A DNA stretch of 53,564 nt from a virus (lineage: Duplodnaviria; Caudoviricetes): the IMG/VR virus record IMGVR_UViG_3300032893_000063, positions 1-53,564 of that record; one strand, written 5' to 3'. Below are positions 10,463 to 48,059 of the stretch, in pieces; position 1 is the first letter of the stretch; each line of letters opens with the position of its first letter. Position numbers and translations under genes: made by a program. The notes beneath the pieces were generated by a model that searched no databases, was not told the DNA's origin, and saw nothing but the letters and a program-made list of their open reading frames with translations.

Positions 10463-10463
10463 T

Positions 10464-13233: not shown

Positions 13234-13242
13234 GGAGAACTC

Positions 13243-16434: not shown

Positions 16435-16435
16435 T

Positions 16436-16894: not shown

Positions 16895-17340
16895 GGTTCT
16901 TCATTCTTACACTCCTACTGATAAGTCAATCCGCTGGGGCCGCCATTCGAGCCAATCCTCAGGGTATTTCTTACGAGGCTTCCGCGACTGCGGCGACCAC
17001 CACAACTTCCGGCACTAACTCAGTAATGAGCGGGATGACCATCACTCCAGCCGCAGGAAATTACCTCGTTTTGTTTTCTGGGTGGTGTACGCATAACAGT
17101 AACGGAGATACGATCACTATCAGCATTTTTAACAACGGGTCTCAGGTGACAGCCAGTATTCGAACTATACTTCCTAGGATCACCTCTAGTTTCGGAACCC
17201 CGGCGGCTTCAGACATGGCTGTAATGACTAACGGCGTAGTTACTGCAACAGGAAGCGGGGCTGTAACAATTGACTGGAGCACTACCGGTGCCACAGCCAC
17301 CTGTACCAATAGAACGCTAGACCTAATTCGGTTGAAGTGA
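16891..17340 (+). CDS. Small beta-sandwich protein with signal peptide (paralogue 2)
   Basis: Tandem paralogue; GTGA start/stop overlap. Confidence 0.7.
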   Translation: MRFFILTLLLISQSAGAAIRANPQGISYEASATAATTTTSGTNSVMSGMTITPAAGNYLVLFSGWCTHNSNGDTITISIFNNGSQVTASIRTILPRITSSFGTPAASDMAVMTNGVVTATGSGAVTIDWSTTGATATCTNRTLDLIRLK

Positions 17341-17346
17341 GGAAAT

Positions 17347-18117: not shown

Positions 18118-18665
18118 TGGATTTCCTACCAGGCGATGTTGCTTTTGTCATGCACTGGGATAACTGGATGAGTAAAGCCATTTCGTGGTTTACTCAAATC
18201 CCGGGGCTGCCCAGGTTCTCTCATACAGTTCTTATCGTCGAGTCTGCGCCGGATCGGACGTACACTTCAGAAACTTCTGATTACGAGTCAACCATCGGAT
18301 GGATTGAGCGCTACACGACTGATCCCAATGTTTATATGGAAGTGTGGAGACTCCCAGACATGACGGACGGGGAAAGGGCTACTGCGGTTATGCGGGGGCT
18401 TTCCCAGCAGGAAACAGTCTACCCCTATTGGCAACTTCTATCCTTAGCTATCCGTGGAATTTTAAAGAAGATCGGGATTCATATTGGGAACATCCTTCCC
18501 TGGGGTTATGATTGTAATGAACATGTCCACTACTCCTTGTTAAAGACACATTACCCAGAACTAGCGAATACGGAACCCCATTCCCTAGACAATCTGGATT
18601 TTTATAAACTTTATACAGGGATTAGCGGAGCTCAAAAGATTTACACTAAACAGGTGGGTCAATGA
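18117..18665 (+). CDS. Permuted papain-like (YiiX/YebB-type NlpC/P60) hydrolase
   Basis: PGDV, FSHTVL (catalytic His), YPYWQL, YDCNEHV (catalytic Cys) in permuted order. Confidence 0.7.
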   Translation: MDFLPGDVAFVMHWDNWMSKAISWFTQIPGLPRFSHTVLIVESAPDRTYTSETSDYESTIGWIERYTTDPNVYMEVWRLPDMTDGERATAVMRGLSQQETVYPYWQLLSLAIRGILKKIGIHIGNILPWGYDCNEHVHYSLLKTHYPELANTEPHSLDNLDFYKLYTGISGAQKIYTKQVGQ

Positions 18666-20890
18666 TTCCAGTTCTAGCGGGGACAAGCCTGGCTTTCGAA
18701 TATACCGCCTACGACGGAACGGCTACGTTGAGCGTCGCGATGAAAATCTACGACGTTACGACGGGTTCCCCATCTTTCGTGAACACGATTGCCATGACCC
18801 ACATGATTAATGGCACCTATGTGGGCTACTTCACCCCTCTTGCCGGTAAAATCTACGCCATCAACAAAATGGTCTATACGGACGGCACATTCGCTACACC
18901 ATCATCCCTGTACAGCCCGGGAAGCGAAACCATTCAGGCATCCACCGAGCAGACTCAAATTACGGCGATTCAGGGCACCCTGACCACAATGAGTGGGCAG
19001 CTCACCTCAGTACAGGGAGATACGAGCACTCTCGTTTCAAGACTTACTGCTGGGAGAGCTTCTAATCTGGATAATCTGGATGCAACAGTTAGCTCCAGAG
19101 CTACACAAGCTTCTGTGGACGCCATCCAGAATAATACAAACTTTGTGGGGATCGTTCCTGCCACCCTCCTCATTCCGGACACTGGAAGCACCCTTTATGT
19201 TTTCTATGCCAATCTCTATGACGAAGTGGGAAGCCCGGTTGATCCTGACGGGGGAATTCTACAGGTAACTATCACAACCGCAGGCGGAGGTATCGTTGTT
19301 CCTACCACGCCGATGACCCACGATGGACTTGGGCGCTATCATTTTAACTATTCCGTTACTTCCATCGATACACCACAACCGCTGACGGTTATCTTCACCT
19401 ACTCTTATTTGAGCGTTCCTTTTACACAACTGAGAGTAACGCAAACAAGCGAATACCAGAGCAGCCTCGATACTCTTCTTAGCCGACTCACTGCAACCAG
19501 GGCAGCGAATTTGGATAACCTAGATACGACAATCTCTTCTAGAGCAAGCGCTGCGGCGATCTCAGCCATCCAGGCAGTTCTTAATCAATTTCACTTTAAC
19601 GGGAATAATGTCCTTGCTGAGACCGTCATTAATGACGATAAATCAGGCTACTCACTCAGCCCAGGATTCGTTGCTACGATCGTAAGCGCCGTGTGGGACG
19701 AGCTTCTTTCCAGCCACACTCTTGCTGGAACAATGGGATACGCCCAGAATCTTCTTGGCGGTATCTCATCGAATGTTCTTTCTCTTCGCTCTGACTATAC
19801 GACTGTAAGAGCTGCTAAGCTCGACAACCTCGATGCGGCGGTATCGACTCGTGCGGATTTCGCCAGCGTTTCGGCTGTCGGTACCCAGGTATCTAACGTC
19901 CAGACGAGCGTTAACAACGTCAACAGCAAGCTTGGCACTCCCGTGGGTGCGTCGGTTTCAGCAGATATAGCCGCAGTCAAAGCAGACACGTCGGCAATCA
20001 ATGCCAAAACCACCAACCTACCAAGCGACCCCGCAAGCGAATCAGCAGTCGAAGCGGCCATCGCTGCGGCAACAGGTTCTCTGCCAACGATTGGTGTTGA
20101 AGTCGCTGCAATTAAGGCGAAGACAGATAATCTTCCTGTCGATCCGGCAAGTGAAAGCTCAGTGGTGGCAATCCCGACCAACCCGCTCCTTACCACCGAC
20201 ACAAGGCTTAACCACCTGGATGCCAATATCTCTAGTCGAGCAACTCCAGCCGATCTGTCCCCGCTCTCAACGGCTTCCCAGGTCTCTGCTTCGACCTCGG
20301 CAATTCTCACGGCTATTGCAGGGGTAGACGCAGATTTGGCCCCTCTGGCTACCACTGCTCAACTTACAGCGGCCACGGCTCCACTGGCTCAACAAAGCAC
20401 TCTCCTCAACGTCGAAAGCGAAGTGCTGGCGATCTCTGGATCTCAAATCACACCTGCTGATGTCTGGACATATACCCCAAGAAGTCTTGATGTGCCGGTC
20501 GATACAACAATTGACCTTACACCAATCGCCAAGACCACGGACGTCACTACAGCAGAAGCCAATATCATTTCCGCAATTCCACAATTCGACTGTCAGATGG
20601 CTACGGCAATTGATCCGGCTACCGACACGATCACATTCCAGGTTTGGCTGGAGCAGGCAAACAGCGTGGTTATCAGCCCACAGACTGCCGAAATCAACGT
20701 CTACAACAGCGCGGGCAACCCTGTAATTTCCGGATTGACGTCGTCTTCTCCTTCTTCAGTGGGCGTATTTACCCTAAGCCAAATCAATGCAAGCAACACT
20801 TTGGCAGCAAACCAAGCTTATACGGTAACAGTGACAATCACCCAGGGAGTTAACACTTACGAAACTACGAAGGCGTTTACGGTGTTCTAA
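18662..20890 (+). CDS. Long structural protein with helical repeats
   Basis: Repeats RAxxLDNLDxxxSSRA and KTxNLPxDPASES. Confidence 0.6.
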   Translation: MIPVLAGTSLAFEYTAYDGTATLSVAMKIYDVTTGSPSFVNTIAMTHMINGTYVGYFTPLAGKIYAINKMVYTDGTFATPSSLYSPGSETIQASTEQTQITAIQGTLTTMSGQLTSVQGDTSTLVSRLTAGRASNLDNLDATVSSRATQASVDAIQNNTNFVGIVPATLLIPDTGSTLYVFYANLYDEVGSPVDPDGGILQVTITTAGGGIVVPTTPMTHDGLGRYHFNYSVTSIDTPQPLTVIFTYSYLSVPFTQLRVTQTSEYQSSLDTLLSRLTATRAANLDNLDTTISSRASAAAISAIQAVLNQFHFNGNNVLAETVINDDKSGYSLSPGFVATIVSAVWDELLSSHTLAGTMGYAQNLLGGISSNVLSLRSDYTTVRAAKLDNLDAAVSTRADFASVSAVGTQVSNVQTSVNNVNSKLGTPVGASVSADIAAVKADTSAINAKTTNLPSDPASESAVEAAIAAATGSLPTIGVEVAAIKAKTDNLPVDPASESSVVAIPTNPLLTTDTRLNHLDANISSRATPADLSPLSTASQVSASTSAILTAIAGVDADLAPLATTAQLTAATAPLAQQSTLLNVESEVLAISGSQITPADVWTYTPRSLDVPVDTTIDLTPIAKTTDVTTAEANIISAIPQFDCQMATAIDPATDTITFQVWLEQANSVVISPQTAEINVYNSAGNPVISGLTSSSPSSVGVFTLSQINASNTLAANQAYTVTVTITQGVNTYETTKAFTVF

Positions 20891-21105
20891 TGTCGATCAG
20901 ATGTTTTGCTCAACAGACAATCATCGCCTTCCTGTTTGGATCGGAGGCTGCATTGGTACCACCGCCACCACCTGCTACCCCAGGGAATCAACCTGAGGAC
21001 GAGAAGGCGCTAAATTTTCCACAGCTTTTAGGATTTACAGCAAACTACAGCACCCAACCCATTACTCCGTCAACGGAGCCCGCAGATGAAAACACCCAGC
21101 CCTAA
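20890..21105 (+). CDS. Small hypothetical protein
   Basis: TAATG coupling with the upstream gene. Confidence 0.45.
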   Translation: MSIRCFAQQTIIAFLFGSEAALVPPPPPATPGNQPEDEKALNFPQLLGFTANYSTQPITPSTEPADENTQP

Positions 21106-21247
21106 ATTCGCCGCCGGGTTCAGGAAGACTGCCATGCATGAAGTTAAGGATATGCAGGAGCGGGCTATTTTCGCGATGAATGCTAAACACCCCAACTACA
21201 GCAAAAAGGGAATCCTTGCTATGCTGAGGCGAAGAGGTGTGAAGTGA
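21086..21247 (+). CDS. 53-aa basic protein, FxxGFxKTA family (not in ORF track)
   Basis: MKTPSPKFAAGFRKTAMHEV...; stop overlaps the next GTG start. Confidence 0.65.
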   Translation: MKTPSPKFAAGFRKTAMHEVKDMQERAIFAMNAKHPNYSKKGILAMLRRRGVK

Positions 21248-22119
21248 GTGTCACGATTAACTGGACGTCTTATGTCGACTCCACGGTAGATAGCTTTAAG
21301 ATCTATAGAGCTATCACAGGGATCAGTGTTCCGTTTCCTAATTCGCTGCAGACTGGGGACACCTTTTCGTTTTCAGCCACGAGCCAGACTGTTCAAAGAG
21401 TGACAATCGGGGCAACAGATATCGCGTCTGTGGCGGCGGCTATCAATAGCCAAGCACAAGGGCTCCAAGCCACTGCAAGCCAGTCGGGGCTTATTCTTTT
21501 CGTTCGTTGCACTGCAACAATTAACCCAAAGCTAAAACTCTATCCATGCCCTTTTTTGGCCCACACCGGAATCCCGGTCCAAATCGTTGTCCCCCAGCTT
21601 AATCCAACCCTGGTAACTACCGTGGCTTCGGTTACGCCACCCCACAATTACAGTTATGCCGATGCGGATGGCTCACCCTATGACTGGTACTACATTACCT
21701 CAGTTACCAGCTCAATAGAGAGCATTCCAAGTATCTGGCAACAGCCTTTAGTTACCCCGGGAACGCTCTGTGTGGTCGAAGGGCGAGTTAAAACGATTCA
21801 GAACAGCCCCATTGTGGGGGCGTTGGTCAAAGCCTCTCCAATTGGCGGTGTAGCGGTCTCAGATGATTCTGGGCTGACATTCCCGCCTATAACAGCCTAC
21901 TCTGATTCGTTTGGGCGTTGGACAATCCCAGTGCTGCAGGGCACCCAAATCCTGTTCCAGATCCCAGCAATCGGCTATAATCAAGTAGTTGAGATTCCGG
22001 CACAACCTTACATGCTCTTTAGTAATCTTGTGCCGGTGAATGATTATTACTTTAGCCCAGATGGGGACATTCTCGGGACCCCAACTGCAACTGCGGATTT
22101 TGAGAACCTAGATTTTTAA
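21244..22119 (+). CDS. Virion structural protein (FN3-like N-terminus, Ig-like C-terminus)
   Basis: INWTS...FKIYRA...WYYITSV...ES pattern. Confidence 0.6.
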   Translation: MSVTINWTSYVDSTVDSFKIYRAITGISVPFPNSLQTGDTFSFSATSQTVQRVTIGATDIASVAAAINSQAQGLQATASQSGLILFVRCTATINPKLKLYPCPFLAHTGIPVQIVVPQLNPTLVTTVASVTPPHNYSYADADGSPYDWYYITSVTSSIESIPSIWQQPLVTPGTLCVVEGRVKTIQNSPIVGALVKASPIGGVAVSDDSGLTFPPITAYSDSFGRWTIPVLQGTQILFQIPAIGYNQVVEIPAQPYMLFSNLVPVNDYYFSPDGDILGTPTATADFENLDF

Positions 22120-22131
22120 CGAAGGAAGCGG

Positions 22132-24009
22132 ATGTTAAGCGCCAACGACGGCTCACCAGATGTCGCAAGTCTAGACCCGAACCTTCGCTTAGTAGGCGAT
22201 AGGAACAGGACTCGCTACCCATCACCCTTCTTCGACGTTTCGCAGCAGTATGTCCCGCCCACGATTAAAGAGCTCTTCAAGTGGGTCTATTACTACGCGA
22301 CAAACAACTCCTTCCTTGGCCCGGCTCTTTCCAAGATCGCACGCTACCCGGTCACCGACCTTATCTTAGAAGATAACAATCCCGAGCTTGTTGAGAATTG
22401 GAAAATGCTCCTCAACAACACTCTCCAGATTAAGACGTTTCTCATGGAAACGAATCTCGATCTTGTAACTTACGGGAACGCCTTTGTTACGATTCACTAT
22501 CCTGCGGCACGCTTCATCAAATGCGAAAAGTGTCGCGAAACTTACCCTTGGAAGATGATCCAAAAGAAGATCGATAATCTTAGGATCAAAATCAAATGTC
22601 CCAAGTGTGGGTATGACGGCGACGCCATTATTAAAGACGCGCCCTACAAGTCTGCCGAAAACATCAGACTTGTGCGAATCAACCCAGAATTTATCGATAT
22701 TAAATATAACGACGCAACTGGACGCCACACCTATCTCTATTCAATTCCAGATAAGCTTAAGCGCCAGATTATGAGCGGTGATCCAGACATCCTGGAAGAC
22801 ACACCACAGATTTATATCGACGCAATTAAACAGAGAAAGAAGATTAAGCTCAGTACCCAGAACCTGTTTCATCTAAAGCGCCCCACCCTTGCCGGTAAGG
22901 ACATGGGCTGGGGAATGCCGCTGATTGCGGTAGCGCTGAAGGATCTCTACTACTTCTACACCCTCCGTCGCGGGCAGGAGGCTATCATTAATGAACACAT
23001 CGTACCGTTTGATGTCCTTTTTCCGCAGGCTAACGGAAAGTTTGATCCTTATGTCCACTCCGATCTTTCTTCCTGGAAACGAGAAATCGAAAGACAACTC
23101 GCCCACAGAAGAAAAGACCCTAACTATAAGGCTGTGCTCCCCTTTCCGGTTGGCTTTGAGCGTATTGGCGGAGACGGCAAGGCTCTTCTTCTAACACCGG
23201 AGCTCGACTTCTTAGCTAAGACCATCATTGGCTCTGTTGGCATACCGCAAGAGTTCGTCTTCGGCGGAACCATGAGCTGGACAGGCTCCAGCATTAGCTT
23301 AAGAACCCTGGAGAACGACTTCCTTCACCATCGCTCCCAACTTCTTCAGCTAACAATCTGGCTTGTCGAAAGACTCAGAATCTATCTGAGCATACCGACG
23401 CCAAAGACAATCAAGTTCTCCGATTTTAAGATGGCTGATGACATGCAGAAGCTTCAGCTCTTGATGGGAATGGCGTCAAATGACAAGCTTGATTGGGATA
23501 GCCTCCAAAAAGAGCTCGGCTACGACCCAGAAGTTATCAGAAAGAAAATCGAAGAACAGAAGCTCTTTGAAGCCAAAATGCTTGAGATTCAAACTGTACG
23601 CGCTGCCGAAGCTCAGGCCAAGGCTCAGAAAGTTCAAATGCGCTACATGCAGCAAATGCAAGAAGATGCCGTTGCGCAAAATGCTCAGATGGCTGACCAG
23701 ATGGGCGACGGTCAGGTCCCTGTTCCCGGAGCAGACCCGGAAGGGGAAGCGGCTGACGCTCAGGATAAGACCATCCAAACCTGGGCTAAAAAGTTAGTAG
23801 GACAAGACCCCAATACCCAAGCTCAAGCTCTCGCTAGGTTACACCAGCAATCCCCAGAATTTGCGGCAAAACTCAAACTCGCCATCTCACAACTTTCACA
23901 ACCTCAGATGCCAGAGGTATCGCAAGGACCGGCACAACCCACTCCGCAAGGAGCGGATATGCGCCCGCTTCCAACTCAGAGACCTCCTCGTAGAAAAGGA
24001 GGCGTCTGA
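22132..24009 (+). CDS. Putative portal protein with Zn-ribbon insertion
   Basis: 625 aa; DLVTYGNAFV, LFHLKRP...GWGMP, IGSVGIPQEFVFGG; CEKC...CPKC; Gln/Pro-rich tail. Confidence 0.7.
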   Translation: MLSANDGSPDVASLDPNLRLVGDRNRTRYPSPFFDVSQQYVPPTIKELFKWVYYYATNNSFLGPALSKIARYPVTDLILEDNNPELVENWKMLLNNTLQIKTFLMETNLDLVTYGNAFVTIHYPAARFIKCEKCRETYPWKMIQKKIDNLRIKIKCPKCGYDGDAIIKDAPYKSAENIRLVRINPEFIDIKYNDATGRHTYLYSIPDKLKRQIMSGDPDILEDTPQIYIDAIKQRKKIKLSTQNLFHLKRPTLAGKDMGWGMPLIAVALKDLYYFYTLRRGQEAIINEHIVPFDVLFPQANGKFDPYVHSDLSSWKREIERQLAHRRKDPNYKAVLPFPVGFERIGGDGKALLLTPELDFLAKTIIGSVGIPQEFVFGGTMSWTGSSISLRTLENDFLHHRSQLLQLTIWLVERLRIYLSIPTPKTIKFSDFKMADDMQKLQLLMGMASNDKLDWDSLQKELGYDPEVIRKKIEEQKLFEAKMLEIQTVRAAEAQAKAQKVQMRYMQQMQEDAVAQNAQMADQMGDGQVPVPGADPEGEAADAQDKTIQTWAKKLVGQDPNTQAQALARLHQQSPEFAAKLKLAISQLSQPQMPEVSQGPAQPTPQGADMRPLPTQRPPRRKGGV

Positions 24010-27720: not shown

Positions 27721-30700
27721 ATGAGAACTTTCTCTGGTCCAGAACAGTTTGATGCGCTCAAGAAAACGGTCGTCGAGTCGTATCAGAAGCTTTTCCCGGT
27801 ACAGAAAGATCCTAACGGAGCAAGTCTCCACCTCAATAAAATCTGGGTGGACGATCAAGCGCTTGACCCACACGACTATGTAGACCAGAAGAAAACCCGT
27901 CTAGCGGGCAATACCTGGGGAGCTCCAGTCTACGCTTCTCTTGAACTTAGAGACGGCACCGGTAAGGTCGTCGATCGCATGGAGAAAGTTCGTCTAGCGA
28001 CTATCCCAAGACTGACCCCACGTGGCTCCTACATCGTAGGTGGAAACGAATACCAGGTTGCTAACCAGCTCCGAATGAAAATGGGTCCTTATGTTGTTCG
28101 TACTCAAAAGGGTGACCAATATAAGGCTGTCTTGAGTCTGGGCGGTGAATTTAATAAGCGTCCCGAAATCCACTTTGACCCTATATCCAATAAATACACC
28201 GCTGTGATCGATCAAAGCAGGATGCCTTTGTACCCCCTCATGCACGCCATGGGAGTAAGTGACGAGGAGATGAGAAAAAACTGGGGTCCGGAGATTTTTG
28301 CAGCTAACCGTGTAGATCCCGATAAATATGTTCTCCGTTTTGCCGAGAAACTGACCAGAACGAAAACAGACAATCCCCAGACCGCTTCTGAAGCAATCAA
28401 GGCTTACGCCAAGACTGCGGTGACCGACCCCAAGGTTTCAGAAGTAACGCTTGGGAAAGCCTACCCGCACCTTCACCCAGGAATGCTTCTTGATACGAGC
28501 AAAAAGCTTTTAAACGTTTATCAGGAAAAGGCAGAACCAGACGATCCGGAAAACCTTCTTTTTAAAGAAGTCCTCTCCGCAGATGATATGTTGAGAGACT
28601 CCCTCTCTCAAAAGCAAAAGGTTAATAACCTTAAATTCATGTTGGCAAGGCACCTCGGTAAGAGGACTGCAATTAAAGACATGATTAACTTTAAGAAGCT
28701 CTCCGCCCCAGTGGAGTACTTCTTTACGCACGATGATCGTGTTTCTACCCCGGAACAGTACAACCCTGTTCACATGCTCTCAGAGACGCACAAGCTTACT
28801 ATGACCGGTACCGGGGGTATTAAAGATCCTCACACGATCATGCCAGAGATTCGTGAGGTTCATCCCTCTCACGTAGGATTTGTTGATCCCGTCCATACGC
28901 CTGAATCCGAAAAGATCGGCGTCATGCTTCATCTTACGACTGGAGCAATGAAAGAAGGGCGGGATGTCAAAACCCCAGTTATCAACACAAGAACTGGAAA
29001 GACAGAGTATCTTACGCCCCTAGAGCTTTATCGAAAGAATGTGGCTTTTCCTGACGAAGCCAAGCTCTCAGACGGGAAAGTCCAGTGGCGCTCTAGTCAG
29101 GTTAAAACACAAAAACTGGGGAAGCTAGGAGTCGTCAAACCATCCGAAGTAGAGTATGTGCTCCCCTCTCAGGCGACTCTTTTTAGCCACTCTACGAACC
29201 TGATCCCCTTTTTACAGAACGATCAGGGAAACCGCGCCATGATGGGCACCAAACATCTTGGGCAGGCAATCCCGCTCGTTGCCAGGGAAGCTCCTCTTGT
29301 TCAAACTGATATTGGGAATGGAACTACATTCCATAAGGCAATCGGAGAGCAATTCTCAGTTCATGCCCCAGTCGATGGTAAAGTAACCAAAGTCACACCA
29401 GATCATATTGAAATCGGAAAGACTAGAATCCCCCTTTACAACGATTTCCCGCTGAACCAGAAGACTTACCTTCACCACGAACCGGTAGTAAAAGTGGGAG
29501 ACACCGTTAGGAAAGGACAGCTTCTTGCTGATTCCAATTTCACTAAGAACGGGACTCTGGCTCTGGGGAAAAATCTTACTGTTGCTTACGTCCCTTATCC
29601 CGGACTTACATTTGAAGACGGCATCGTAATCACCGAAAGCGCTGCCAAGAAGCTCGCTTCTCAGAACATCTATAAGCATACTTTTGAAGTCGAATCCGGA
29701 ACGAGAATGGCTGACTTCAAAAAGTACACTGCTTATTACCCGAATACAGTAAGCAAAGAACTAAAATCCAAGTTCGACGAAGATGGGGTCATCCGCAAAG
29801 GATCGCTTGTTAACCCAAATGATCTTCTGATCATGGGGCTTAAATACGATCTCGCTAGCCCAGAGAATGCCACCCTTCGCAGGATCAACAAAGCTCTCCA
29901 AAAGCCTTGGTCCAATGCTGGGGTGAAATATAAGGGAGAGTTCCAAGGCGTTGTCACCGACGTAGTGAAAAGAGCCGGACAGATCGATGTCTTCGTAAAG
30001 GCAGTCGAGCCTGCAAAAGAATCAGACAAATTATCCGGGGTACACGGTAACAAGGGTGTAATCACTAAAATCCTCCCCGACAATGAGGCCCCAAGATTAG
30101 CCAATGGAACTATTCCAGACGTGCTGCTAAACCCTCATGGCATTATCGGTCGTATTAACCTAGGCCAAATCTACGAAAGTGCCGCATCTAAGATCGCAGA
30201 AAAAACCGGTAAGCCTTATGTAGTAAAGAACTTTTCTGGGGAAAACATAAACGACAAGATCCAAGAAGAGCTTAAAAAGCACGGAATTTCCGACATGGAA
30301 GAGATGATTCTTCCTAACGGGAAATCTATCGGAAAAGTAAGTGTAGGTAAGCCTTATATTCTTAGACTCGCTAAAACAGGCAAGTCCGGATTCTCAGCTC
30401 GCATGCCGATGACAAGCTACGACTTAAACCGACAACCTGTGAAGGGCGGGGAAGAGGGCACTAAGGCTCTGGACCTGATGACTTTCTATTCGATGCTTTC
30501 CCACGGGGCTAAAAAGAACCTGATTGATGCTCACCAGAAGAGCGAACAAAACGACGAGTATTGGCATGCCATCGAAATGGGTAAACCGCTTCCGGCCCCA
30601 AAGCCCACTTTCGCATTTAATAAATTCATTTCGCTTCTGCATGGGGCTGGAATAAATACGGTTAAGCAAGGCCAAGATGTGGTGCTAGCCCCTCTTACGG

Positions 30701-33700
30701 ATGGGGCAGTTAAAAGACTCAGCAATGGGGCTGTTACTGAGCCTGAGTTTCTTTACGGAAAGGATCTCAAAGAAAAGCGTGGGGGATTGTTTGATCCCAT
30801 TACAACAGGCGGAAAGTTTGGAGCCCATTACGCCCATATCGAACTTCCCGCAGCAATGCCTAACCCTGTCTTTGAGAAGGCGATCCGAACGCTCACAAAT
30901 CTTAAGCCAGGCGACTATAACGACATCATTGCCGGACTTAAGCATGTCAACGTGGACGGGGCTGTCTTAAGCGAGCCTGCCAAAAATACTCTTACGGGCG
31001 GTCCTGGTATCTCTAGACTCCTAGGCAGAATTGATATCGATCGCGATCTCAAGACGTTTAAAGATAATCTAGCAAAAGCTAAAAATGAGACTGAGGTAGA
31101 CATCCTCAATCGAAAGATGCGCTATCTTTCTGCGCTTAAGGAACTTAACCTTAAGCCCGAAGAAGCCTACATGAGAAAACTCGTCCCCGTAGTGCCACCC
31201 CAATACAGACCCGTTTACGAAACCCCAAAACAGGGTTTAAGGGTATCTCCGGTCAACTACCTCTACCAGAGCGTGGGACTCCTTTCCAAGTCACACGATT
31301 ACCCAGTCATGAAACTTCTCCCTGAGAGTGAGAAGGCAGAGCTCAACACGGATACGTATAAATCCACAAGAGCTCTTGCTGGACTTGAGCCTGTTCTTAC
31401 AAGAAGTAAGGATCATCCGATTGAGGGCTTCATTTCTCAGATCACCGGATCAAAGCCTAAAAAGGGCTTTTTTATCAGCAAGATCTTGGACCGAAGACAA
31501 GACCTAGTGGGTCGCGGTGTTATTACCGCCGCCCCAGATCTTGACGTGGATGAACTTGGAATTCCTGAAAAGATGGCTTGGAATATCTTCCGCCCATTTA
31601 TCGTAAGAGAATACACTGCGGCAGGAATCGGAGCCGACGTAGCTAGAAAAGAAATCGAGGCTCGTGATTCCAGGGCCAAGCAGATGCTTGAAGCTGCGAT
31701 GAACAAGAGAACCGTCTTGATGAATCGAGCCCCCTCTCTGCACAAATTCTCCATCATGTCCTTTAAGCCCAAGCTGACTGACGGTCTTGCCGTGAGGGTG
31801 CCGCCTCTTGTTTTGAAAGGGTTCGGAGGAGACTTCGACGGAGATGCAGTAACGATCCACGTTCCTACAAGCGACGAAGCTATCAATGAGTCTCGAAAGA
31901 TGTTCCCCTCAAATAACCTTTTTAAGCCGGGGACTGGCGAACTTATGATCATGCCATCTCAGGAAAGCGCTATTGGACTTTATTTCTTATCCCAAAGTGC
32001 TGAGGGTAGGAAAAAGATCAACTCTCTCCTTCCTGATAAGTTTAAGATAGACTCTGAGCTCAGCGCTAAGGCTGCCAGGCAGCTTTATAACAAGATCGCT
32101 AAAGAAGCCCCCAAGGATTACCACAACATTGTTTTTGATCTTAAAATGCTGGGGGATAAGACTGCCTATGAAAAGGGATTCTCAGTTGGCTTAAAAGACC
32201 TCGTCGTAGATACGGGGGTCAAGCAAAAGATCTTCTCAGCCGCAGATAAGAAAGCGGACGAAATTAAAAGAACAACTAAGCCTGGAATCGAACAAGATCG
32301 AAAGGTCTCGGATGTCTATAGCGCGGCTTCAAAAGAGGCTTACGAAACTATCAAGCGGGATTTGAAGGGTAAAAACAATAGCTTTTACCACATGGTTACA
32401 AGTGGTGCTCGCGGTAAGGACAGCCAACTCATGCAGCTACTCTCTGCGCCAGGAGTGGTTGCTGGGGCTAAAGATCGCCCAATTCCCATCCCGATTAAAA
32501 AGTCCTACGCAGAGGGGCTTAACACGAGTGATTACTTTGTTTCTTCTTACGGTGTTCGTAAGGGTATGACCGACCGGGTTCTTCAGACCTCTGCTCCAGG
32601 GGCGCTCAATAAAGAAATCATGGCAAGCACCCTAGATAACATTGTTACGGCTAGCGATTGCGGAACAGAAAGGGGAATCGATCTCCCTACCTCAAGTTCT
32701 GACGTCTACGATCGCTACCTCTCAAAAAGCCAAGCGGGGTTCCCAAGAAATACTCTTGTCACACCACAGCTCATCTCCGCATTGACTAAAAAGGGCGTCA
32801 AAACAATCCACGTCCGGTCCCCTTTAAAGTGCCTTGCGACCAAGGGAACCTGTGCGCATTGTTACGGAATTGACGAGCACGGACAACTTCCTCCAATTGG
32901 AGAAAATATCGGGGCCAAGTCTGGTCAGGCAATCTCTGAGCCGATGACCCAAATGACCATGAAGACTTTCCACACGGGTGGCGTGGCTGGAGAAGCCCCT
33001 GTTGCTAAGGGTTTCGAACGCATCAAACAGCTTCTTGAGATGCCTAAGCACACTGCCGGGGAAGCAACCCTTTCAAGAATCGATGGCCCAGTTACCAAGA
33101 TCGCGCCTGTGGCCACAGGAGGGTACGAAGTTCACGTGGGCACCGAGATTCACAAGGTACCCCCGCAGCGCGAGTTAAAAGTAAAGAAGGGAGACCATGT
33201 CTTGGCCGGAGATGTTCTTTCTTCGGGAGTGATCAAGCCCCAAGAGCTTCTCAAGTATAAGGGAATGCCCGCAGCCCAAAATTACATTGTCGACGAGCTT
33301 CATAAGGCTTATCAGGGGCAGGACATCCCTATGCAACGTAAAATCTTTGAAACCGTTGTGCGCTCCGTTGGGAATCTAACTCGCGTCGTTCATGCCCCAA
33401 AGCACGCTGAATTCAATGTGGGAGATATCATCCCCTACACCACCGCTGTTCACTATAACGAGACCCGGGCAGAAAAACTCCCTGCCTCCGAAGCTACTGG
33501 ATATCATTTACAATTCCCTGTTGGTAACCTCCCGCAATTCCACGTGATTACGGACAAGGACGTTTCTTATCTGAAGGGGATGGGATACAATCAAATAGAT
33601 GTGCTAAAGGAACCGCTCAAGCACGCACCTATTTTGACAGGTATTGATCGACTCCCGATCAATAAGAAAAATTGGATGGCGCAGCTAGGCTATCGCTACA

Positions 33701-33819
33701 TCAAAAACACGCTAACAGACGGAGCTGCTGAAGCGTGGAAAACAAAGTTGCAGGACACCCACCCCGTTCCTGCCTTTGCTTACGGTGCAACGTTTGGGCA
33801 GAAAAAGGAGCACTACTAA
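27721..33819 (+). CDS. Phage two-barrel RNA polymerase, fused beta + beta' polypeptide
   Basis: beta motifs HTPESEKIG, NDQGNRAMMG, DKLSGVHGNKGVI, LNPHGIIGRINLGQ; beta' motifs NRAPSLH, GGDFDGD, SGARG, SYAEGL, EPMTQMTMKTFHTGG. Confidence 0.95.
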   Translation: MRTFSGPEQFDALKKTVVESYQKLFPVQKDPNGASLHLNKIWVDDQALDPHDYVDQKKTRLAGNTWGAPVYASLELRDGTGKVVDRMEKVRLATIPRLTPRGSYIVGGNEYQVANQLRMKMGPYVVRTQKGDQYKAVLSLGGEFNKRPEIHFDPISNKYTAVIDQSRMPLYPLMHAMGVSDEEMRKNWGPEIFAANRVDPDKYVLRFAEKLTRTKTDNPQTASEAIKAYAKTAVTDPKVSEVTLGKAYPHLHPGMLLDTSKKLLNVYQEKAEPDDPENLLFKEVLSADDMLRDSLSQKQKVNNLKFMLARHLGKRTAIKDMINFKKLSAPVEYFFTHDDRVSTPEQYNPVHMLSETHKLTMTGTGGIKDPHTIMPEIREVHPSHVGFVDPVHTPESEKIGVMLHLTTGAMKEGRDVKTPVINTRTGKTEYLTPLELYRKNVAFPDEAKLSDGKVQWRSSQVKTQKLGKLGVVKPSEVEYVLPSQATLFSHSTNLIPFLQNDQGNRAMMGTKHLGQAIPLVAREAPLVQTDIGNGTTFHKAIGEQFSVHAPVDGKVTKVTPDHIEIGKTRIPLYNDFPLNQKTYLHHEPVVKVGDTVRKGQLLADSNFTKNGTLALGKNLTVAYVPYPGLTFEDGIVITESAAKKLASQNIYKHTFEVESGTRMADFKKYTAYYPNTVSKELKSKFDEDGVIRKGSLVNPNDLLIMGLKYDLASPENATLRRINKALQKPWSNAGVKYKGEFQGVVTDVVKRAGQIDVFVKAVEPAKESDKLSGVHGNKGVITKILPDNEAPRLANGTIPDVLLNPHGIIGRINLGQIYESAASKIAEKTGKPYVVKNFSGENINDKIQEELKKHGISDMEEMILPNGKSIGKVSVGKPYILRLAKTGKSGFSARMPMTSYDLNRQPVKGGEEGTKALDLMTFYSMLSHGAKKNLIDAHQKSEQNDEYWHAIEMGKPLPAPKPTFAFNKFISLLHGAGINTVKQGQDVVLAPLTDGAVKRLSNGAVTEPEFLYGKDLKEKRGGLFDPITTGGKFGAHYAHIELPAAMPNPVFEKAIRTLTNLKPGDYNDIIAGLKHVNVDGAVLSEPAKNTLTGGPGISRLLGRIDIDRDLKTFKDNLAKAKNETEVDILNRKMRYLSALKELNLKPEEAYMRKLVPVVPPQYRPVYETPKQGLRVSPVNYLYQSVGLLSKSHDYPVMKLLPESEKAELNTDTYKSTRALAGLEPVLTRSKDHPIEGFISQITGSKPKKGFFISKILDRRQDLVGRGVITAAPDLDVDELGIPEKMAWNIFRPFIVREYTAAGIGADVARKEIEARDSRAKQMLEAAMNKRTVLMNRAPSLHKFSIMSFKPKLTDGLAVRVPPLVLKGFGGDFDGDAVTIHVPTSDEAINESRKMFPSNNLFKPGTGELMIMPSQESAIGLYFLSQSAEGRKKINSLLPDKFKIDSELSAKAARQLYNKIAKEAPKDYHNIVFDLKMLGDKTAYEKGFSVGLKDLVVDTGVKQKIFSAADKKADEIKRTTKPGIEQDRKVSDVYSAASKEAYETIKRDLKGKNNSFYHMVTSGARGKDSQLMQLLSAPGVVAGAKDRPIPIPIKKSYAEGLNTSDYFVSSYGVRKGMTDRVLQTSAPGALNKEIMASTLDNIVTASDCGTERGIDLPTSSSDVYDRYLSKSQAGFPRNTLVTPQLISALTKKGVKTIHVRSPLKCLATKGTCAHCYGIDEHGQLPPIGENIGAKSGQAISEPMTQMTMKTFHTGGVAGEAPVAKGFERIKQLLEMPKHTAGEATLSRIDGPVTKIAPVATGGYEVHVGTEIHKVPPQRELKVKKGDHVLAGDVLSSGVIKPQELLKYKGMPAAQNYIVDELHKAYQGQDIPMQRKIFETVVRSVGNLTRVVHAPKHAEFNVGDIIPYTTAVHYNETRAEKLPASEATGYHLQFPVGNLPQFHVITDKDVSYLKGMGYNQIDVLKEPLKHAPILTGIDRLPINKKNWMAQLGYRYIKNTLTDGAAEAWKTKLQDTHPVPAFAYGATFGQKKEHY

Positions 33820-35402: not shown

Positions 35403-35861
35403 TTATAGGGTATTCAGGAATGTCTCTAGTTGAGGAAGGATTTCTGGTTTTGCGAGATTGAAAACTGGGATTCCATTCTCTGCTGCTACCATAATCGCAG
35501 TTCTTGTCCCGCCCACCGCCTTGCCTTCTTTAGTCCAGCAGACAACGAATTCAGACGGGGTATGAAGATCTCGTCCAAGAACCTGTAATACATTCCGACC
35601 ATGATACCCACGTGATAAACGATCACAAGCACCCCAATTCGGATGAATCTTGCTAGCGATTTGTTCAGCTGCCTCGGTAGTATCGGTAGCATAATAAATC
35701 TCCTTTTCTTTAGCCCCTCTTTCAAAAGCTTGATCAGCGCCGATAGCTCCGCCTGATCTCAGAGTAAACCTCAAGTTAACTAAATGCTCGGCGATTGATG
35801 TCATCATTTTTTGAACGGCTATTGGAGTTTGTCTCGACCCAACTCCGGTGTAATAACGCAT
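35403..35861 (-). CDS. SLOG/DprA-like (Smf) nucleotide-binding protein
   Basis: YTGVGSR, LRSGGAIGAD, VVCWT...GGTRTAI...IPVFNL. Confidence 0.8.
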   Translation of the reverse strand: MRYYTGVGSRQTPIAVQKMMTSIAEHLVNLRFTLRSGGAIGADQAFERGAKEKEIYYATDTTEAAEQIASKIHPNWGACDRLSRGYHGRNVLQVLGRDLHTPSEFVVCWTKEGKAVGGTRTAIMVAAENGIPVFNLAKPEILPQLETFLNTL

Positions 35862-43504: not shown

Positions 43505-45127
43505 ATGAGCGGACTAAGTATCGAAAAAGAGTTCCTAAAGAACGGGGACGTTAAGACTAAACTCAAAGCTCTGAAGACAGATTGGATCTCTAGGCTTGTC
43601 TACCTCGACGGGAAACCCTTTAGCTTTAGCGGTCGCAACTATCTTCTTCCAATCTATAACAATCCCTCATCTCGTAAGCTTTTAATGTGTGGTCGTCAGG
43701 TTGAAAAGACGACTATGCTTGCCAACGAAATCATTATCAGTTCGGTCATTCAGCCCTACTATAAAACCCTCTATGTTAGTCCGAGCCATAGCCAGACCAG
43801 AGCTTTTTCAAACCAGAAGCTCAAGCCATGGATTACGGACTCTCCTATTATTTCGAAATACTTCCAGTCATCCAAGATTTCTCAGCAGGTTTTTGAGCGT
43901 GGATTTACAAACGGGAGTTTGTGTTTTTTAAGATCAGCCTTCCTTACCGCCGACCGTGTTCGTGGTCTTTCCTCCTACATGCTTTGCTTAGATGAGCTCC
44001 AGGACTTACTCACTTCTAATATCCCGGTCATTGAAGAGTGCCTCTCCCACGCACCCAACCCGATTGAAATCATGTCAGGCACCCCTAAGAGCCTAGAGAA
44101 TCCCATCCAGCTTTACTGGGAGGGTTCTAGCCAATGTGAATGGCTTGTTCCGTGTGATCACCACACGCCCGTTTACTACAACTACCTCGATGAGCAGAAT
44201 ATAGGACTTGATGGACCCATATGTAAAAAATGCGGGAATCCCATCGATCCGGCAAGGGGACAGTGGGTTGCCTTTAGCAGTGAAAGAGAAATCATGGGCT
44301 ATAGAATCAGCCAGCTCATGGTTCCCTGGTATCAGGACCCCAGAAAGTGGAAGGAACTCGTCTGGAAAAAAGAGAATCTTTCTAAGGGAAGCCTTTATAA
44401 CGAATGCTTGGGAATCAGCTACGACTCCGCAAGTAAGCCCATTACTCGGGCGGAACTCATCTCCTGTTGCTCAACCAAACATCAGTTCTGCCACCGCCCA
44501 ACTCAGTTTACTAATCGTGTTGAGCTTTTTGCTGGAGTAGATTGGGGTGAAGGAACAGACGGGACCGAGCGAGGGGCCAAGGGAAAGATCAGAAACGCGT
44601 CTTACACAGTTCTCGCCATTGGGCTTTATCTTGATCAAAAGCACTTTCATTATCTCTACTATAGACGCTTTGAAGGCAAGGATGCTCTCCCAGGTAACTG
44701 TGTGAATGAGATTATTCGAATCTGCAAGGACTTCCGCGTGAAGTGTATCGGAGCTGACTGGGGTCATGGGTGGGGAGTAAACGAAAGACTTGAAGAGGCT
44801 TTTGGTACCACGAGAGTGATTAAGTTTCAGCACGTGGGAAACCAGAGACAGCGCAAGAAATACGACGAAATCGGGCACAAGTTTCAGCTAGCTCGAAACG
44901 AAGTCATCACCGATTTCATCATGGATATCAAAGACCACAAGATCGTTTGGCCCGATTGGGAACACGTAAAAAATTATCTTTGCGATCTGGAACATATTTA
45001 CTGCGAATATAAAGAGGCTACTCGACAGATGGTCTATGACCACAAGCCCAGCGAACCCGACGATGCACTTCATGCTTCGATCTACTGCAAAGAAGCGGCG
45101 GATAACTATTACGGGAAGCAGCGATAA
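43505..45127 (+). CDS. terL: Terminase large subunit (GpA-like)
   Basis: GRQVEKTT Walker A, LCLDE Walker B, SGTPK, CDH...CKKC, AGVDWG nuclease, PDDALHA. Confidence 0.9.
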   Translation: MSGLSIEKEFLKNGDVKTKLKALKTDWISRLVYLDGKPFSFSGRNYLLPIYNNPSSRKLLMCGRQVEKTTMLANEIIISSVIQPYYKTLYVSPSHSQTRAFSNQKLKPWITDSPIISKYFQSSKISQQVFERGFTNGSLCFLRSAFLTADRVRGLSSYMLCLDELQDLLTSNIPVIEECLSHAPNPIEIMSGTPKSLENPIQLYWEGSSQCEWLVPCDHHTPVYYNYLDEQNIGLDGPICKKCGNPIDPARGQWVAFSSEREIMGYRISQLMVPWYQDPRKWKELVWKKENLSKGSLYNECLGISYDSASKPITRAELISCCSTKHQFCHRPTQFTNRVELFAGVDWGEGTDGTERGAKGKIRNASYTVLAIGLYLDQKHFHYLYYRRFEGKDALPGNCVNEIIRICKDFRVKCIGADWGHGWGVNERLEEAFGTTRVIKFQHVGNQRQRKKYDEIGHKFQLARNEVITDFIMDIKDHKIVWPDWEHVKNYLCDLEHIYCEYKEATRQMVYDHKPSEPDDALHASIYCKEAADNYYGKQR

Positions 45128-45168
45128 CTAAAAAATTAAAGTGGTGGGGGATCGAGTCCCCCACCACT
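45127..45168 (-). terminator. Intrinsic terminator closing the RAMP-array unit
   Basis: 12-bp stem agtggtggggga/tcccccaccact followed on - by TTAATTTTTTAGTT. Confidence 0.85.
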
Positions 45169-45190
45169 AGGCATTTCAAGAGGTGCATGC

Positions 45191-45619
45191 CTGCCCCTCC
45201 AGTCCCGTCGTCTACAGACCTTTCCCATCTACTGCTGCCTCTCTCCGCCATTCCACTCCAGTACTTGCTTGTGACCGCGTATCCGCTCTCCGCGCTTCCA
45301 ATATCCTCCATTACTGCCTTTCCCGTAATGTCCAACCCTCTCAAGTCATCTGGCGGCCACTCCGCTCCTTTACTGCCCTTCCCTTCCACTTAATTCGCTA
45401 CCGGTACGATGACGTCCGGGCGCTTACGATCCGGTTCTGCCATTCAGGTCCTATCTGATCGGTGCGCTTCCGTTACATTGCGATCCTCTACTGCCGATCC
45501 TGTGACCTCCAAGGGCGTCGTTACCGCTCCGCTCTAAGCGACTCGTCTCCCCTGCTGCCACTCCGGTGGAAGTCCATGCTGGTCCAGTCATGCGCAAACG
45601 TAGCCTATCCTTTTCTGCC
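45191..45619 (-). ncRNA. Putative guide-RNA array: 7 units of GGCAG-HA-NN-(GGA-like triplet+NN)n
   Basis: GGCAG starts at 45619, 45559, 45495, 45441, 45377, 45318, 45239, 45195; spacings 60, 64, 54, 64, 59, 79, 44 (5n+4 except the first); 27 of 72 pentamers begin GGA and 54 of 72 have A at position 3. Confidence 0.85.
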
Positions 45620-45630
45620 ATTTCATTAAT

Positions 45631-45667
45631 TTTGGTGGAGACCCGAGCGAGTCAGGCCCCCACCAAA
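45631..45667 (-). promoter_or_regulatory. Hairpin between the RAMP gene and the array (leader/processing element)
   Basis: tttggtgg/ccaccaaa stem. Confidence 0.55.
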
Positions 45668-45675
45668 TTCAATGA

Positions 45676-46305
45676 CTACCGGCGCTTTACTTCAAACATC
45701 CCGAGATTGCCACTCTTCTCAGGTCTGTACTCGCACAGACCAATCGAGAATCCGGCATTCTCATAGAGGTTCAGAAGTTGCTCCGCTGTGATGATATCGG
45801 GGCGATATTGGACGACAAATGTAATTTCCCACTTATCGAATCGCCCACGGGTTCGGGTAGCGGGCTTCTTGTTTCCAAAAGTCCCCACCCGAACCGTTCT
45901 TCGATCAACCTCTGGACGAGGCCCTCTGATTTCACAAAGACCTCCAGCCTCTTCAATAATGTGAAATGCTCCTTTTGCTTCAGTCATTGAGATCCCCTCA
46001 ATGAATCGGCAAGCAGACACCGCACAGTTCTTGATACCTGAAGCAGGAACTCCATATGAGTTTCTCTTCCCCGGCATTCGGTAAAGAGAGTCTTCAAATT
46101 CCTGTTCGACGGTCTTTGGGATTTTCTTTCCCTTGGCCACCTTTCGGTAACTGTCCTCGATCTCCTGCCTTGATTTCTCATCAAAGCGGTTAACGAGAAG
46201 AGGAGTGACCCCTCGAATGGTTATTTTTGCCAACTTTTTGTTGATTGGCGGAATAACGATTGTTTTTGACTCTTCCTTTTTGCTTTCCTGCTTTTTTCCT
46301 TTCAT
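45676..46305 (-). CDS. Cas7/RAMP-like RNA-binding protein
   Basis: ITIRGVTPLLVN first strand, VPASGIKNC helix start, WEITFVVQY strand, C-terminal Gly loop AGFSIGLCEYRPEKSGNLGMFEV. Confidence 0.75.
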   Translation of the reverse strand: MKGKKQESKKEESKTIVIPPINKKLAKITIRGVTPLLVNRFDEKSRQEIEDSYRKVAKGKKIPKTVEQEFEDSLYRMPGKRNSYGVPASGIKNCAVSACRFIEGISMTEAKGAFHIIEEAGGLCEIRGPRPEVDRRTVRVGTFGNKKPATRTRGRFDKWEITFVVQYRPDIITAEQLLNLYENAGFSIGLCEYRPEKSGNLGMFEVKRR

Positions 46306-46771
46306 ACCGTTTTTGCACCTCTTGTATTGCTTTGAAAACCGGTCTTAATTCCTTGACCTGCTCAAAGCGTTCATATCGAAGCTTCCAGCTTCGAAGACCT
46401 TGAATTGCTTCCTCAAGAACCTGGCTCCACAAATCTTTATCTTTGTAAGCTATGCTCGTATCTACATAAGTCCTTGTTTTACTAGTTCCCACGTAGACGC
46501 TTACAGACTTAGGAACATCCCTGACCCCGTTGACTTCGACAAATAGACACTGGATCAGTTTCCTTGCTTGTTGGAGCCTATAGAGTTCTGCAGCCCTGGA
46601 ATCGTCCCATTCAAAGTATTTGTGGATAGGTGAGTTTCCAGGTCTTGCTGCATCAACAATTTCTTTAGGAGTATAAACGCCGTCTGGAAATCGCCGATCT
46701 AAAAAGGCTCCGATGATTTTAGCGTCCCGGTTATTGAACGTAGTACCAGGACGTGCTGTATAATGTTTCAC
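46190..46771 (-). CDS. Conserved phage protein (FEWDD motif), partner of the RAMP gene
   Basis: TPKEIVDAARP..SPIHKYFEWDDSRAAELYRLQQARKLI; AAGGAG RBS with GTG start. Confidence 0.7.
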   Translation of the reverse strand: MKHYTARPGTTFNNRDAKIIGAFLDRRFPDGVYTPKEIVDAARPGNSPIHKYFEWDDSRAAELYRLQQARKLIQCLFVEVNGVRDVPKSVSVYVGTSKTRTYVDTSIAYKDKDLWSQVLEEAIQGLRSWKLRYERFEQVKELRPVFKAIQEVQKRYERKKAGKQKGRVKNNRYSANQQKVGKNNHSRGHSSSR

Positions 46772-46789
46772 GTTTTACTCCTTAATTAA

Positions 46790-46818
46790 GTGAGGGGAGC
46801 TCAGATGGCTCCCCTCAC
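46790..46818. terminator. Intergenic hairpin
   Basis: gtgaggggagc/gctcccctcac 11-bp stem. Confidence 0.55.
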
Positions 46819-46825
46819 GTACTGA

Positions 46826-47689
46826 TTAGTTCACCACAATCGACACAGGCGCAGTAAGCGTCGTGGGGATTGAGGCTGGCGCAGTATACGCCGATATCGA
46901 AAGGTACTGGGCCGGAGCCTGGTTACCTACCGGTATCGAAGTACAGGTGCCATTCATAGCGCGATAGGATGCCGCAGTCAGGGTCTGGATCGTATTCGTC
47001 GTACGATACACACCACCAGCCGTGAACTGGAAAGTCACATTTGCTGGCGCTTGCATCGCAGAAACGTAAGCCGATCCTGTGCAGGTGGACGAGGTGAAAT
47101 AAGTTTGCACCAGATTCCCACCCAGAGTCATGTTCGTATAAGTCACCGCAACTTGATTGGTCGTGTCCCATACCACATAAGTATAGGTTCCAACGTTTTG
47201 GTTATTATACGTACCGTTCCCGTTCCAAGCGCTTTGCAGCAAGCCATTACCCACCTCTACGCCGTTCGCATAGAGCGAGATTGAGCTTGTTGCAGGAGTT
47301 CCTGGGTTACCCTGAGGACCTTGCGGACCTTGTGGGCCTTGGGAACCTTGAGCACCTGCGACGCCTTGAGATCCTTGAGGACCTTGAGCGCCTGTTGCTC
47401 CGACAGCACCGGTAGCGCCCACAGCACCATTGACACCATTTGTGCCGTTGGTTCCGTTTGCGCCGTTGGCAATAAACGCACCACTCCCGTCGCCGCAGGA
47501 AATTTGAGCACCTCCTGTAGCGGCAGCAGCAGCAGAGCATCCATTGGTTTGCACAAGCATCTTAGTGGGCGAACTCACAGTAGAAGTGCTCACCGAACTC
47601 GTGCTTTGGATATCGGACGAACTATTGCAGCCAGTCGCAGCAACGAACATCAGCGTAAGGGCAGACACCATCAACATAGCGTTCTTCAT
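46826..47689 (-). CDS. Collagen-repeat lipoprotein
   Basis: Lipobox AATG-C; about 20 Gly-X-Y triplets; GGAGG RBS. Confidence 0.8.
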   Translation of the reverse strand: MKNAMLMVSALTLMFVAATGCNSSSDIQSTSSVSTSTVSSPTKMLVQTNGCSAAAAATGGAQISCGDGSGAFIANGANGTNGTNGVNGAVGATGAVGATGAQGPQGSQGVAGAQGSQGPQGPQGPQGNPGTPATSSISLYANGVEVGNGLLQSAWNGNGTYNNQNVGTYTYVVWDTTNQVAVTYTNMTLGGNLVQTYFTSSTCTGSAYVSAMQAPANVTFQFTAGGVYRTTNTIQTLTAASYRAMNGTCTSIPVGNQAPAQYLSISAYTAPASIPTTLTAPVSIVVN

Positions 47690-47711
47690 TTGGGCCTCCT
47701 TTGGTTATGAG

Positions 47712-48059
47712 CTATTTCCAGCCCACTGCTTTTTTCTCTTCGCTCGTGAGAGTGATCCATTTTTGTTTTTGGTAAGCCTCCTTTTCATAAGGATTTTCTC
47801 GGTAAGCTTTGTCCAAATTTCGAAAACGGATCAGATCGCGAACGAAGTAGAATTGATAGAGAAGGTTGAATTTCCAGAACCCAACCTCTTTAGTTTGTCT
47901 GACATGAACTATTTCATGTCGTATCGTTGTCTTAGGAACGTGCCCCCTATCCTTTTCAAAAAGCACGAAAGGATAGAGGACACAGGCGTCACATCTGAGA
48001 AACTCCGGAAGCCACCGGGCTTGGAGCCATTTCTGTCCGTAAAGAACTCTGAGTCGCAT
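47712..48059 (-). CDS. Small zincin-like metallopeptidase-domain protein
   Basis: HEIVHVRQ...NPYEKEAY. Confidence 0.7.
   Translation of the reverse strand: MRLRVLYGQKWLQARWLPEFLRCDACVLYPFVLFEKDRGHVPKTTIRHEIVHVRQTKEVGFWKFNLLYQFYFVRDLIRFRNLDKAYRENPYEKEAYQKQKWITLTSEEKKAVGWK

Follow-up and report, generated by a model that had tools for sequence, protein, structure and literature searches.

The DNA analysed here, referred to below as the window, is the whole 53,564-bp contig of IMG/VR record IMGVR_UViG_3300032893_000063, which belongs to a wetland phage (Duplodnaviria; Caudoviricetes). A module of ~ 1.7 kb is located on its minus strand, between positions 45127 and 46818. In the 5′ to 3′ direction of that strand, the module is formed by a hairpin, a gene for a protein referred to as FEWDD, a gene for a Cas7-like RAMP protein (vipr), another hairpin, a non-coding array of 429 nt with seven predicted guides, and a terminator. 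All of these parts lie where an initial annotation, prepared from the letters alone, had placed them. The arrangement corresponds to that of VIPR (Viral Interference Programmable Repeat) systems, described as a minimal RAMP, made up of an RRM core, a G-loop and a thumb, with usually one accessory gene and guide RNAs termed vrRNAs (10.64898/2026.04.26.720920). As given in that preprint, vrRNAs are composed of 9–16 pentamers, in each of which GGY is constant and the NN dinucleotide is free, and double-stranded DNA (dsDNA) is recognised with one base skipped per repeat. The initial annotation had named VIPR as a phage system with GGY/NN repeats and a Cas7-like protein, in agreement with this source.

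The vipr open reading frame (ORF) occupies positions 45676–46305 (−) and encodes 209 residues. No Pfam or NCBIfam model matches the protein, and its sole PHROG match is phrog_4652, a family of unknown function. A word-based search gave 246 candidates, 165 of which are relatives at E ≤ 0.001; none of these carries an annotation, and the top one has 70% identity. The profile of an alignment of 50 relatives (A1) matched one solved structure among the PDB sequences, 36pp_D, “SUSP1 Vipr protein”, with E 3.7e-8 (E 0.022 with the single 209-aa sequence). In the genome of the Escherichia phage SUSP1 (NC_028808.2), the same profile matched a single place, the gene agp039, with E 3.2e-10. The hhalign comparison with agp039 gave a probability of 96.5% and E 8.4e-10 over 70 columns, a stretch that comprises the thumb and the G-loop. 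The G-binding residues reported from the cryo-electron microscopy of SUSP1 Vipr (10.64898/2026.04.26.720927), Arg138, Asp177, Trp178 and Arg179, align with Arg153, Glu192, Tyr193 and Arg194 of the 209-aa protein, of which Arg153, Glu192 and Arg194 are invariant across A1. Judged by these alignments, the protein is a Vipr, homologous to that of SUSP1.

The predicted structure of Vipr (mean predicted local distance difference test, pLDDT, 86.9) has a Cas7/Csm3-type RAMP fold in the Foldseek comparison, which bears out the fold assigned to 45676–46305 by the initial annotation. Solved Vipr structures are not among the fold matches, since the library searched with Foldseek goes no further than 8 April 2026 and does not contain them. 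The top structural matches are all RNA-targeting Cas7 proteins of types III, III-E and VII (Csm3, Cmr4, Cas7-11). Together with the lack of a DNA target in the searches described below, these matches would suit a VIPR-like system that reads RNA and not dsDNA, as Csm3, Cmr4 and Cas7-11 do. The only tested relative, the homologous SUSP1 Vipr, however, binds dsDNA on either strand, and DNA-related accessory genes are described in all VIPR types, in a scheme of seven types and six vap genes (10.64898/2026.04.26.720920). We thus regard the reading of RNA as quite improbable, and retain dsDNA as the expected target.

The array lies downstream of vipr at positions 45191–45619 (−). It contains eight copies of the word GGCAG, starting at 45619, 45559, 45495, 45441, 45377, 45318, 45239 and 45195, which delimit seven units of 60, 64, 54, 64, 59, 79 and 44 nt; GGCAG itself occurs 77 times on the whole minus strand of the 53.5-kb window. 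Six of the seven unit lengths equal 4 modulo 5, meaning that the last G of a GGCAG ends one phased series and opens the next. In the frame set by GGCAG, the three fixed positions carry G in 63 of 86 pentamers, A in 60 of 86 and G in 47 of 86, and the remaining two positions are mixed. The repeat is therefore a GGA-NN pentamer, looser than in the relatives, in seven GGCAG-delimited units, as had been claimed. The predicted 5-nt period is also evident in the autocorrelation of the array: identity reaches 0.366 at lag 5, 0.379 at lag 10 and 0.355 at lag 15, whereas every other lag in the range up to 20 gives 0.20–0.33. For the period-5 statistic, the array scored 0.111 and 1000 dinucleotide-preserving shuffles gave a mean of 0.00 (standard deviation 0.016, maximum 0.059; z 7.2), none of them reaching the observed value. 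The 12 best-scoring 200-nt segments of the 53.5-kb stretch all fall within 45176–45651.

ORFs of 55–123 aa can be drawn across this 429-nt tract on both strands, so we considered whether it may be protein-coding, or a G-rich repeat that acts as DNA. The tract has a period of 5 and not of 3 (identity 0.258 at lag 3 and 0.277 at lag 6, against 0.366 at lag 5), and none of the five ORFs inside it has a Pfam match at E ≤ 1, in agreement with the earlier statement that it holds no credible coding sequence. Moreover, the tract follows the strand of vipr in the relatives, where the free bases vary and the triplet stays, and here it ends in a minus-strand terminator. A function other than that of a guide array is hence extremely improbable. 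The array had also been described as distinct from CRISPR, and this holds: it is phased in pentamers, Rfam found no family in 44900–47000, including no CRISPR repeat family, and Tandem Repeats Finder reported nothing in 44900–47100. The latter result is expected, since two bases in every five are free.

If the final G of each GGCAG opens a guide that extends through the following GGCAG, the array would give seven guides of 61, 65, 55, 65, 60, 80 and 45 nt (counted with the shared G), equivalent to 9–16 pentamers. On the minus strand, predicted guide 1 spans 45555–45615 (61 nt, 12 pentamers and one extra internal base), guide 2 spans 45491–45555 (65 nt, 13 pentamers) and guide 3 spans 45437–45491 (55 nt, 11 pentamers). 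Guide 4 covers 45373–45437 (65 nt, 13 pentamers), guide 5 covers 45314–45373 (60 nt, 12 pentamers), guide 6 covers 45235–45314 (80 nt, 16 pentamers) and guide 7 covers 45191–45235 (45 nt, 9 pentamers). These lengths fit the vrRNA range given in the VIPR preprint. The legend of its fig. S18 describes staggered arrays, with a 1-nt overlap between adjacent vrRNAs (10.64898/2026.04.26.720920); the unit lengths of 4 modulo 5 fit such an overlap, with RNA ends predicted from the sequence, and the proposal that GGCAG marks guide boundaries is consistent with it.

Arrays of this kind accompany vipr in the relatives. A Vipr relative is encoded in 46 viral contigs. In all 14 of the nearest loci (33–63% identity), a period-5 tract directly follows vipr on the same strand, and in the ten of these loci with at least three GGCAG marks, 66 of 86 spacings equal 4 modulo 5. 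In a broader comparison of 52 rows, including SUSP1 and the window, a clear period-5 tract (score of the best 150-nt segment ≥ 0.12) is present beside vipr in 50. The tract of the relatives is always on the vipr strand, and variation from one relative to another lies in the free bases, with the fixed triplet kept. We also observed variants of the unit boundary word, namely GGCGG in the related loci L005 and L006 (860–1360) and GGCTG in L007 (3600–4130).

The second gene of the module, at 46190–46771 (−), encodes the 193-aa FEWDD protein, a conserved partner of Vipr. The protein has no Pfam or NCBIfam match, and it matches phrog_15946 with E 1.3e-21. Of the 14 nearest loci, 13 have a FEWDD homologue that adjoins vipr, on the upstream side in nine cases and on the downstream side in four; in the remaining locus, which ends 583 nt past vipr, no homologue was found. 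Among the records of cultured phages, 34 have a Vipr and 32 have a FEWDD homologue in the gene next to vipr. The family is large, with 9,853 cluster representatives at E ≤ 0.001, and is unannotated in the Pfam, NCBIfam and ESM Atlas look-ups. In the AlphaFold2 model (pLDDT 92.7), a small α/β domain is followed by a long helical hairpin. Foldseek returned nothing from the PDB at E ≤ 0.001 for this fold; the BFVD search gave three uncharacterised viral proteins, and ESM Atlas gave unnamed viral clusters only. The FEWDD profile found nothing below E 0.038 among PDB sequences, and its comparison with SUSP1 agp038 (vap1) by hhalign gave a probability of 0.1%, i.e., no detectable similarity. The complex prediction of Vipr with FEWDD scored 0.00, which is evidence neither for nor against binding. 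Based on its position and conservation, we propose the FEWDD protein as a candidate Vap accessory protein, its gene taking the place of the accessory gene that VIPR systems usually carry.

We must also note that the 3′ end of the FEWDD ORF overlaps the vipr ORF by 116 nt in another frame (46190–46305, −). In L002–L004, the FEWDD tblastn match likewise reaches past the start of the vipr match. The overlapped tail corresponds to the low-confidence end of the model (pLDDT 59–64), and most homologues have about 155–180 residues.

Taken together, the locus appears to be a complete VIPR system, with vipr, a conserved accessory gene (FEWDD) and a staggered array of seven vrRNAs; we would put the probability of this reading at roughly 85%. 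It is a further example of the VIPR class, of the staggered-array kind. The novelty implied by the initial annotation is not sustained, as both the class and the array layout were published in April–June 2026. Like the staggered systems in the preprint (10.64898/2026.04.26.720920), the present one combines a lone RAMP with one accessory gene in a virus, and its guides have 9–16 pentamers of a fixed triplet and two free bases. Adjacent guides are offset by one base in both cases, and neither has a CRISPR array, cas1 or cas2. Only two traits of the locus are unusual: the GGA repeat, in place of the published GGY “or a related consensus”, and a partner other than vap1.

The closest experimentally studied system is the type II VIPR of SUSP1 (vipr agp039, vap1 agp038), which is likewise phage-borne, with a homologous Vipr and a two-gene operon with flanking guide genes. 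The SUSP1 vrRNAs, as described in the preprint, are about 100 nt long with a conserved 3′ tail and a pseudoknot, whereas here the guides abut at GGCAG, which leaves no room for a 3′ tail. The fixed triplet is GGY in SUSP1 and GGA here, the partner is vap1 in SUSP1 and FEWDD here, and the G-loop reads GVGDWR in SUSP1 and GLCEYR here. Neither vap1 nor tailed vrRNAs, the features of type II, are thus present at this locus.

Another related system is found in Mycobacterium phage Brocalys (genus Cheoctovirus; NC_031262.1, 32.1–34.0 kb), in which two adjacent genes with hypothetical products encode a Vipr (gp45, about 33% identity) and a FEWDD homologue (gp46). According to the DNA of the Brocalys record, its pentamer array is punctuated by GGCAG, as here. 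However, its triplet is GGC and its array precedes vipr, filling part of a 237-nt gap on the upstream side of gp45, whereas here GGA pentamers lie downstream. The Brocalys locus belongs to a temperate-phage immunity region, where its neighbours are genes for the immunity repressor, an antirepressor and an excisionase. Both homologues also occur in 26 further Mycobacterium phage records.

Subunits of the Csm3/Cmr4 kind in type III CRISPR systems, and of Cas7 in type VII, polymerise on guide RNA with a fixed step. The step of these subunits is 6 nt along a contiguous spacer, whereas it is 5 nt with a free NN here. They also work in multi-subunit effectors, encoded together with further cas genes and CRISPR repeats, and the present locus has neither; among the 29 larger ORFs of the window scanned against PHROGs, no Cas family was matched. 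The locus is therefore not a class 1 CRISPR-Cas system of type III or VII, and only the Cas7-like fold is in common.

The fixed triplet differs among the relatives. It is GGA in the window and in L001–L008, L010 and L011; GGC in L009, L048 and Brocalys; and GGT/GTT in L012–L014 and L049. In a Vipr tree of 34 distinct rows (midpoint-rooted for drawing only), the GGA, GGC and GGT/GTT rows all fall within one clade of 16 rows with support 100/99, in which the third fixed base is A in ten rows, C in three and T in three. The designation of the locus as a GGA/NN variant is thus correct for the GGA clade. All 13 rows of the 16-row clade that were searched have a FEWDD homologue beside vipr, and most arrays have GGCAG or a near variant. 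On this tree, as many as three changes are required to account for the A at the third position, but a single origin is possible. The G-loop of the GGA rows follows the pattern AGF..GL[CHN]E[YFW]R, whereas that of the GGC rows is GVG[DE][WY]R, as in SUSP1, and that of the GGY rows outside the clade is mostly G[IV]G[DE][FWY]R. Because the G-loop tracks the phylogeny, its association with the triplet is a lead and not a proof of a specificity switch. A re-specification of the third fixed base within the GGA-containing clade, as a change in the VIPR code, is in our opinion a tentative idea with the odds somewhat against it.

In terms of published repeats, consensus alternatives to GGY are allowed for (“related consensus”: NNNGG, YNNNG, NNNNG; 10.64898/2026.04.26.720920). 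A later preprint extends the VIPR picture (10.64898/2026.10.15.759431); its text gave no hit for GGCAG in the portion available. Another lists 21 clusters with non-GGY triplets (10.64898/2026.10.21.760802). In the available portions of the VIPR preprint texts, we found no natural GGA repeat named (for the main text of 10.64898/2026.04.26.720920, this result covers GGR, GGN and purine only). The available text of that work does not name the boundary word GGCAG either, and its figs. S16–S18 may show both features.

The proposed mode of action follows the published SUSP1 work. The minus strand would be transcribed through both genes and the array, up to the terminator stem at 45140–45168, and the transcript would yield seven guides of 45–80 nt by processing at GGCAG. 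Each guide would run from the last G of one GGCAG to the end of the next, so that neighbours share one base. In the SUSP1 structure, each 5-nt repeat is occupied by one protomer, and the target is read by the NN bases (10.64898/2026.04.26.720927). The same had been suggested for the present protein, and by homology its protomers should polymerise on the guide RNA, one per pentamer, forming a filament that holds GGA and exposes the two free bases. The exposed dinucleotides may then read dsDNA with one target base skipped per repeat, and the binding would silence a rival mobile element. For the GGA clade, the skipped base, the kind of target and the rival element are all proposed by analogy.

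No self-target of the guides was found in the 53,564-bp contig above the shuffled-guide controls at skips of 0–3, and self-targets were likewise reported as absent for the VIPR systems of the preprint (10.64898/2026.04.26.720920). When the guides of nine related loci were added to those of the window, the resulting set of 66, compared with 306 kb of local DNA, gave mean best matches of 0.733–0.746 at all four skip lengths, which is noise. The exact 1-nt-skip patterns of guides 5, 2 and 3 had no hits in viral_contigs, and those of guides 5 and 2 had none in metagenome_contigs, searches that targets with even one mismatch would escape. When up to three mismatches were allowed, guides 5, 2 and 3 had no match in seven whole related phage records.

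Several observations weigh against a complete, working VIPR system at this locus. The replacement of GGY by GGA, the sole mention of GGA in the supplement of the VIPR preprint, is listed among the perturbations tested (fig. S12; 10.64898/2026.04.26.720920), and the third-base pocket of SUSP1 Vipr is said to exclude purines (10.64898/2026.04.26.720927), so that a GGA guide would need a changed pocket. The fixed bases of the array are conserved at 55–73%, compared with about 90–99% in L010, and the period-5 score of its best 150-nt segment is 0.14, compared with 0.2–0.37 in most relatives and among the lowest of the GGA-type loci. Some guides may therefore be worn. Finally, the target searches, which covered guides 2, 3 and 5 in the public collections, found no natural target.

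The looseness of the array and the lack of a target for the guides tried could also be explained by a decaying or idle VIPR locus, in which the genes are intact and the guides have drifted so that they no longer direct silencing. Such decay seems unlikely, as both ORFs are whole with the key G-binding residues kept, the terminator is intact, and six of the seven unit lengths still keep the rule of 4 modulo 5. Contigs from two other studies are letter-identical to the window across parts of the array (45354–45672 and 45440–45622). Moreover, internal degeneracy is described as frequent in working vrRNAs (10.64898/2026.04.26.720920), and the exact-match searches would miss sites with even one mismatch. 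We thus prefer the reading of a complete VIPR system, which its genes and phasing support.

The remaining elements of the module are structural. The upstream hairpin (46790–46818, −) has a folding energy of −23.4 kcal/mol (z −4.57), and none of 200 shuffles folds as well; it lies directly past the stop of the collagen-like tail-fibre gene and is without a T run. The second hairpin, with a 16-bp stem, separates the stop codon of vipr from the first GGCAG (45631–45667, −; −28.3 kcal/mol, z −5.7) and is not conserved, given that the first GGCAG of L001 is located 13 nt past the vipr match. The intrinsic terminator (45131–45168, −) is formed by a 12-bp G + C-rich stem at 45140–45168, followed by a T run, with −35.8 kcal/mol over a 70-nt stretch (z −5.65). 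On that side, the neighbour of the module is the convergent large-terminase gene, whose 3′ end points towards the terminator.

The neighbour on the other side, on the same strand as the module, encodes a collagen-repeat tail-fibre-like protein (46826–47689, −; Pfam Collagen, 3e-9). Its Gly-X-Y repeat (47216–47483) attracts a pile-up of many unrelated metagenome contigs. PHROG and Pfam matches to a terminase, tail fibres, a baseplate hub, an RNA-polymerase-like protein and a DNA polymerase identify the contig as viral, and no tRNA genes were found in its 53,564 bp. A single 2032-aa ORF at 27721–33819 (+) has several PHROG matches to RNA polymerase β/β′ (phrog_25354, 7e-121; phrog_24349, 4e-72), by which it is assigned as a giant single-chain phage RNA polymerase. 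The ORF at 35403–35861 (−) matches phrog_768 (E 6e-52) and encodes a protein like DprA, a mediator of DNA recombination; the phage otherwise looks lytic. At E ≤ 1e-5, PHROG matches are lacking for most large ORFs at 6588–24009 (+), e.g., those of 1088, 1063, 742 and 625 aa, and a pattern search of viral_contigs found no relatives of the terminase; the phage lineage is therefore poorly sampled. The sequence around the module (44000–48000) occurs at low depth in contigs from three wetland metagenome runs of three studies, one of which may be the origin of the record, and no array variants were seen in those contigs. No RNA run was among those listed as containing the sequence. The search of genome_contigs, made with the host in mind, returned only three distant loci, all in metagenome-assembled genomes.

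The picture of VIPR is unchanged by this locus, and its use would lie mostly in the engineering of orthogonal guide-protein pairs and in the annotation of phage genomes, in which both proteins are still labelled hypothetical. Three of its features could be useful in work on VIPR. First, a natural GGA-type repeat occurs in a family whose studied member reportedly rejects purines at that position. If the GGA Vipr does require A, it would form natural orthogonal protein-guide pairs with SUSP1 Vipr, which excludes purines. Second, this wetland phage shares the GGCAG boundary word with a mycobacteriophage at about 33% Vipr identity; under the idea of a re-specified third base, the word would be a dedicated boundary signal. 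Third, the tightly linked partner, with no known fold match and no similarity to vap1, belongs to a very large viral family, and under the same idea the FEWDD proteins would represent an uncharacterised class of VIPR accessory proteins.

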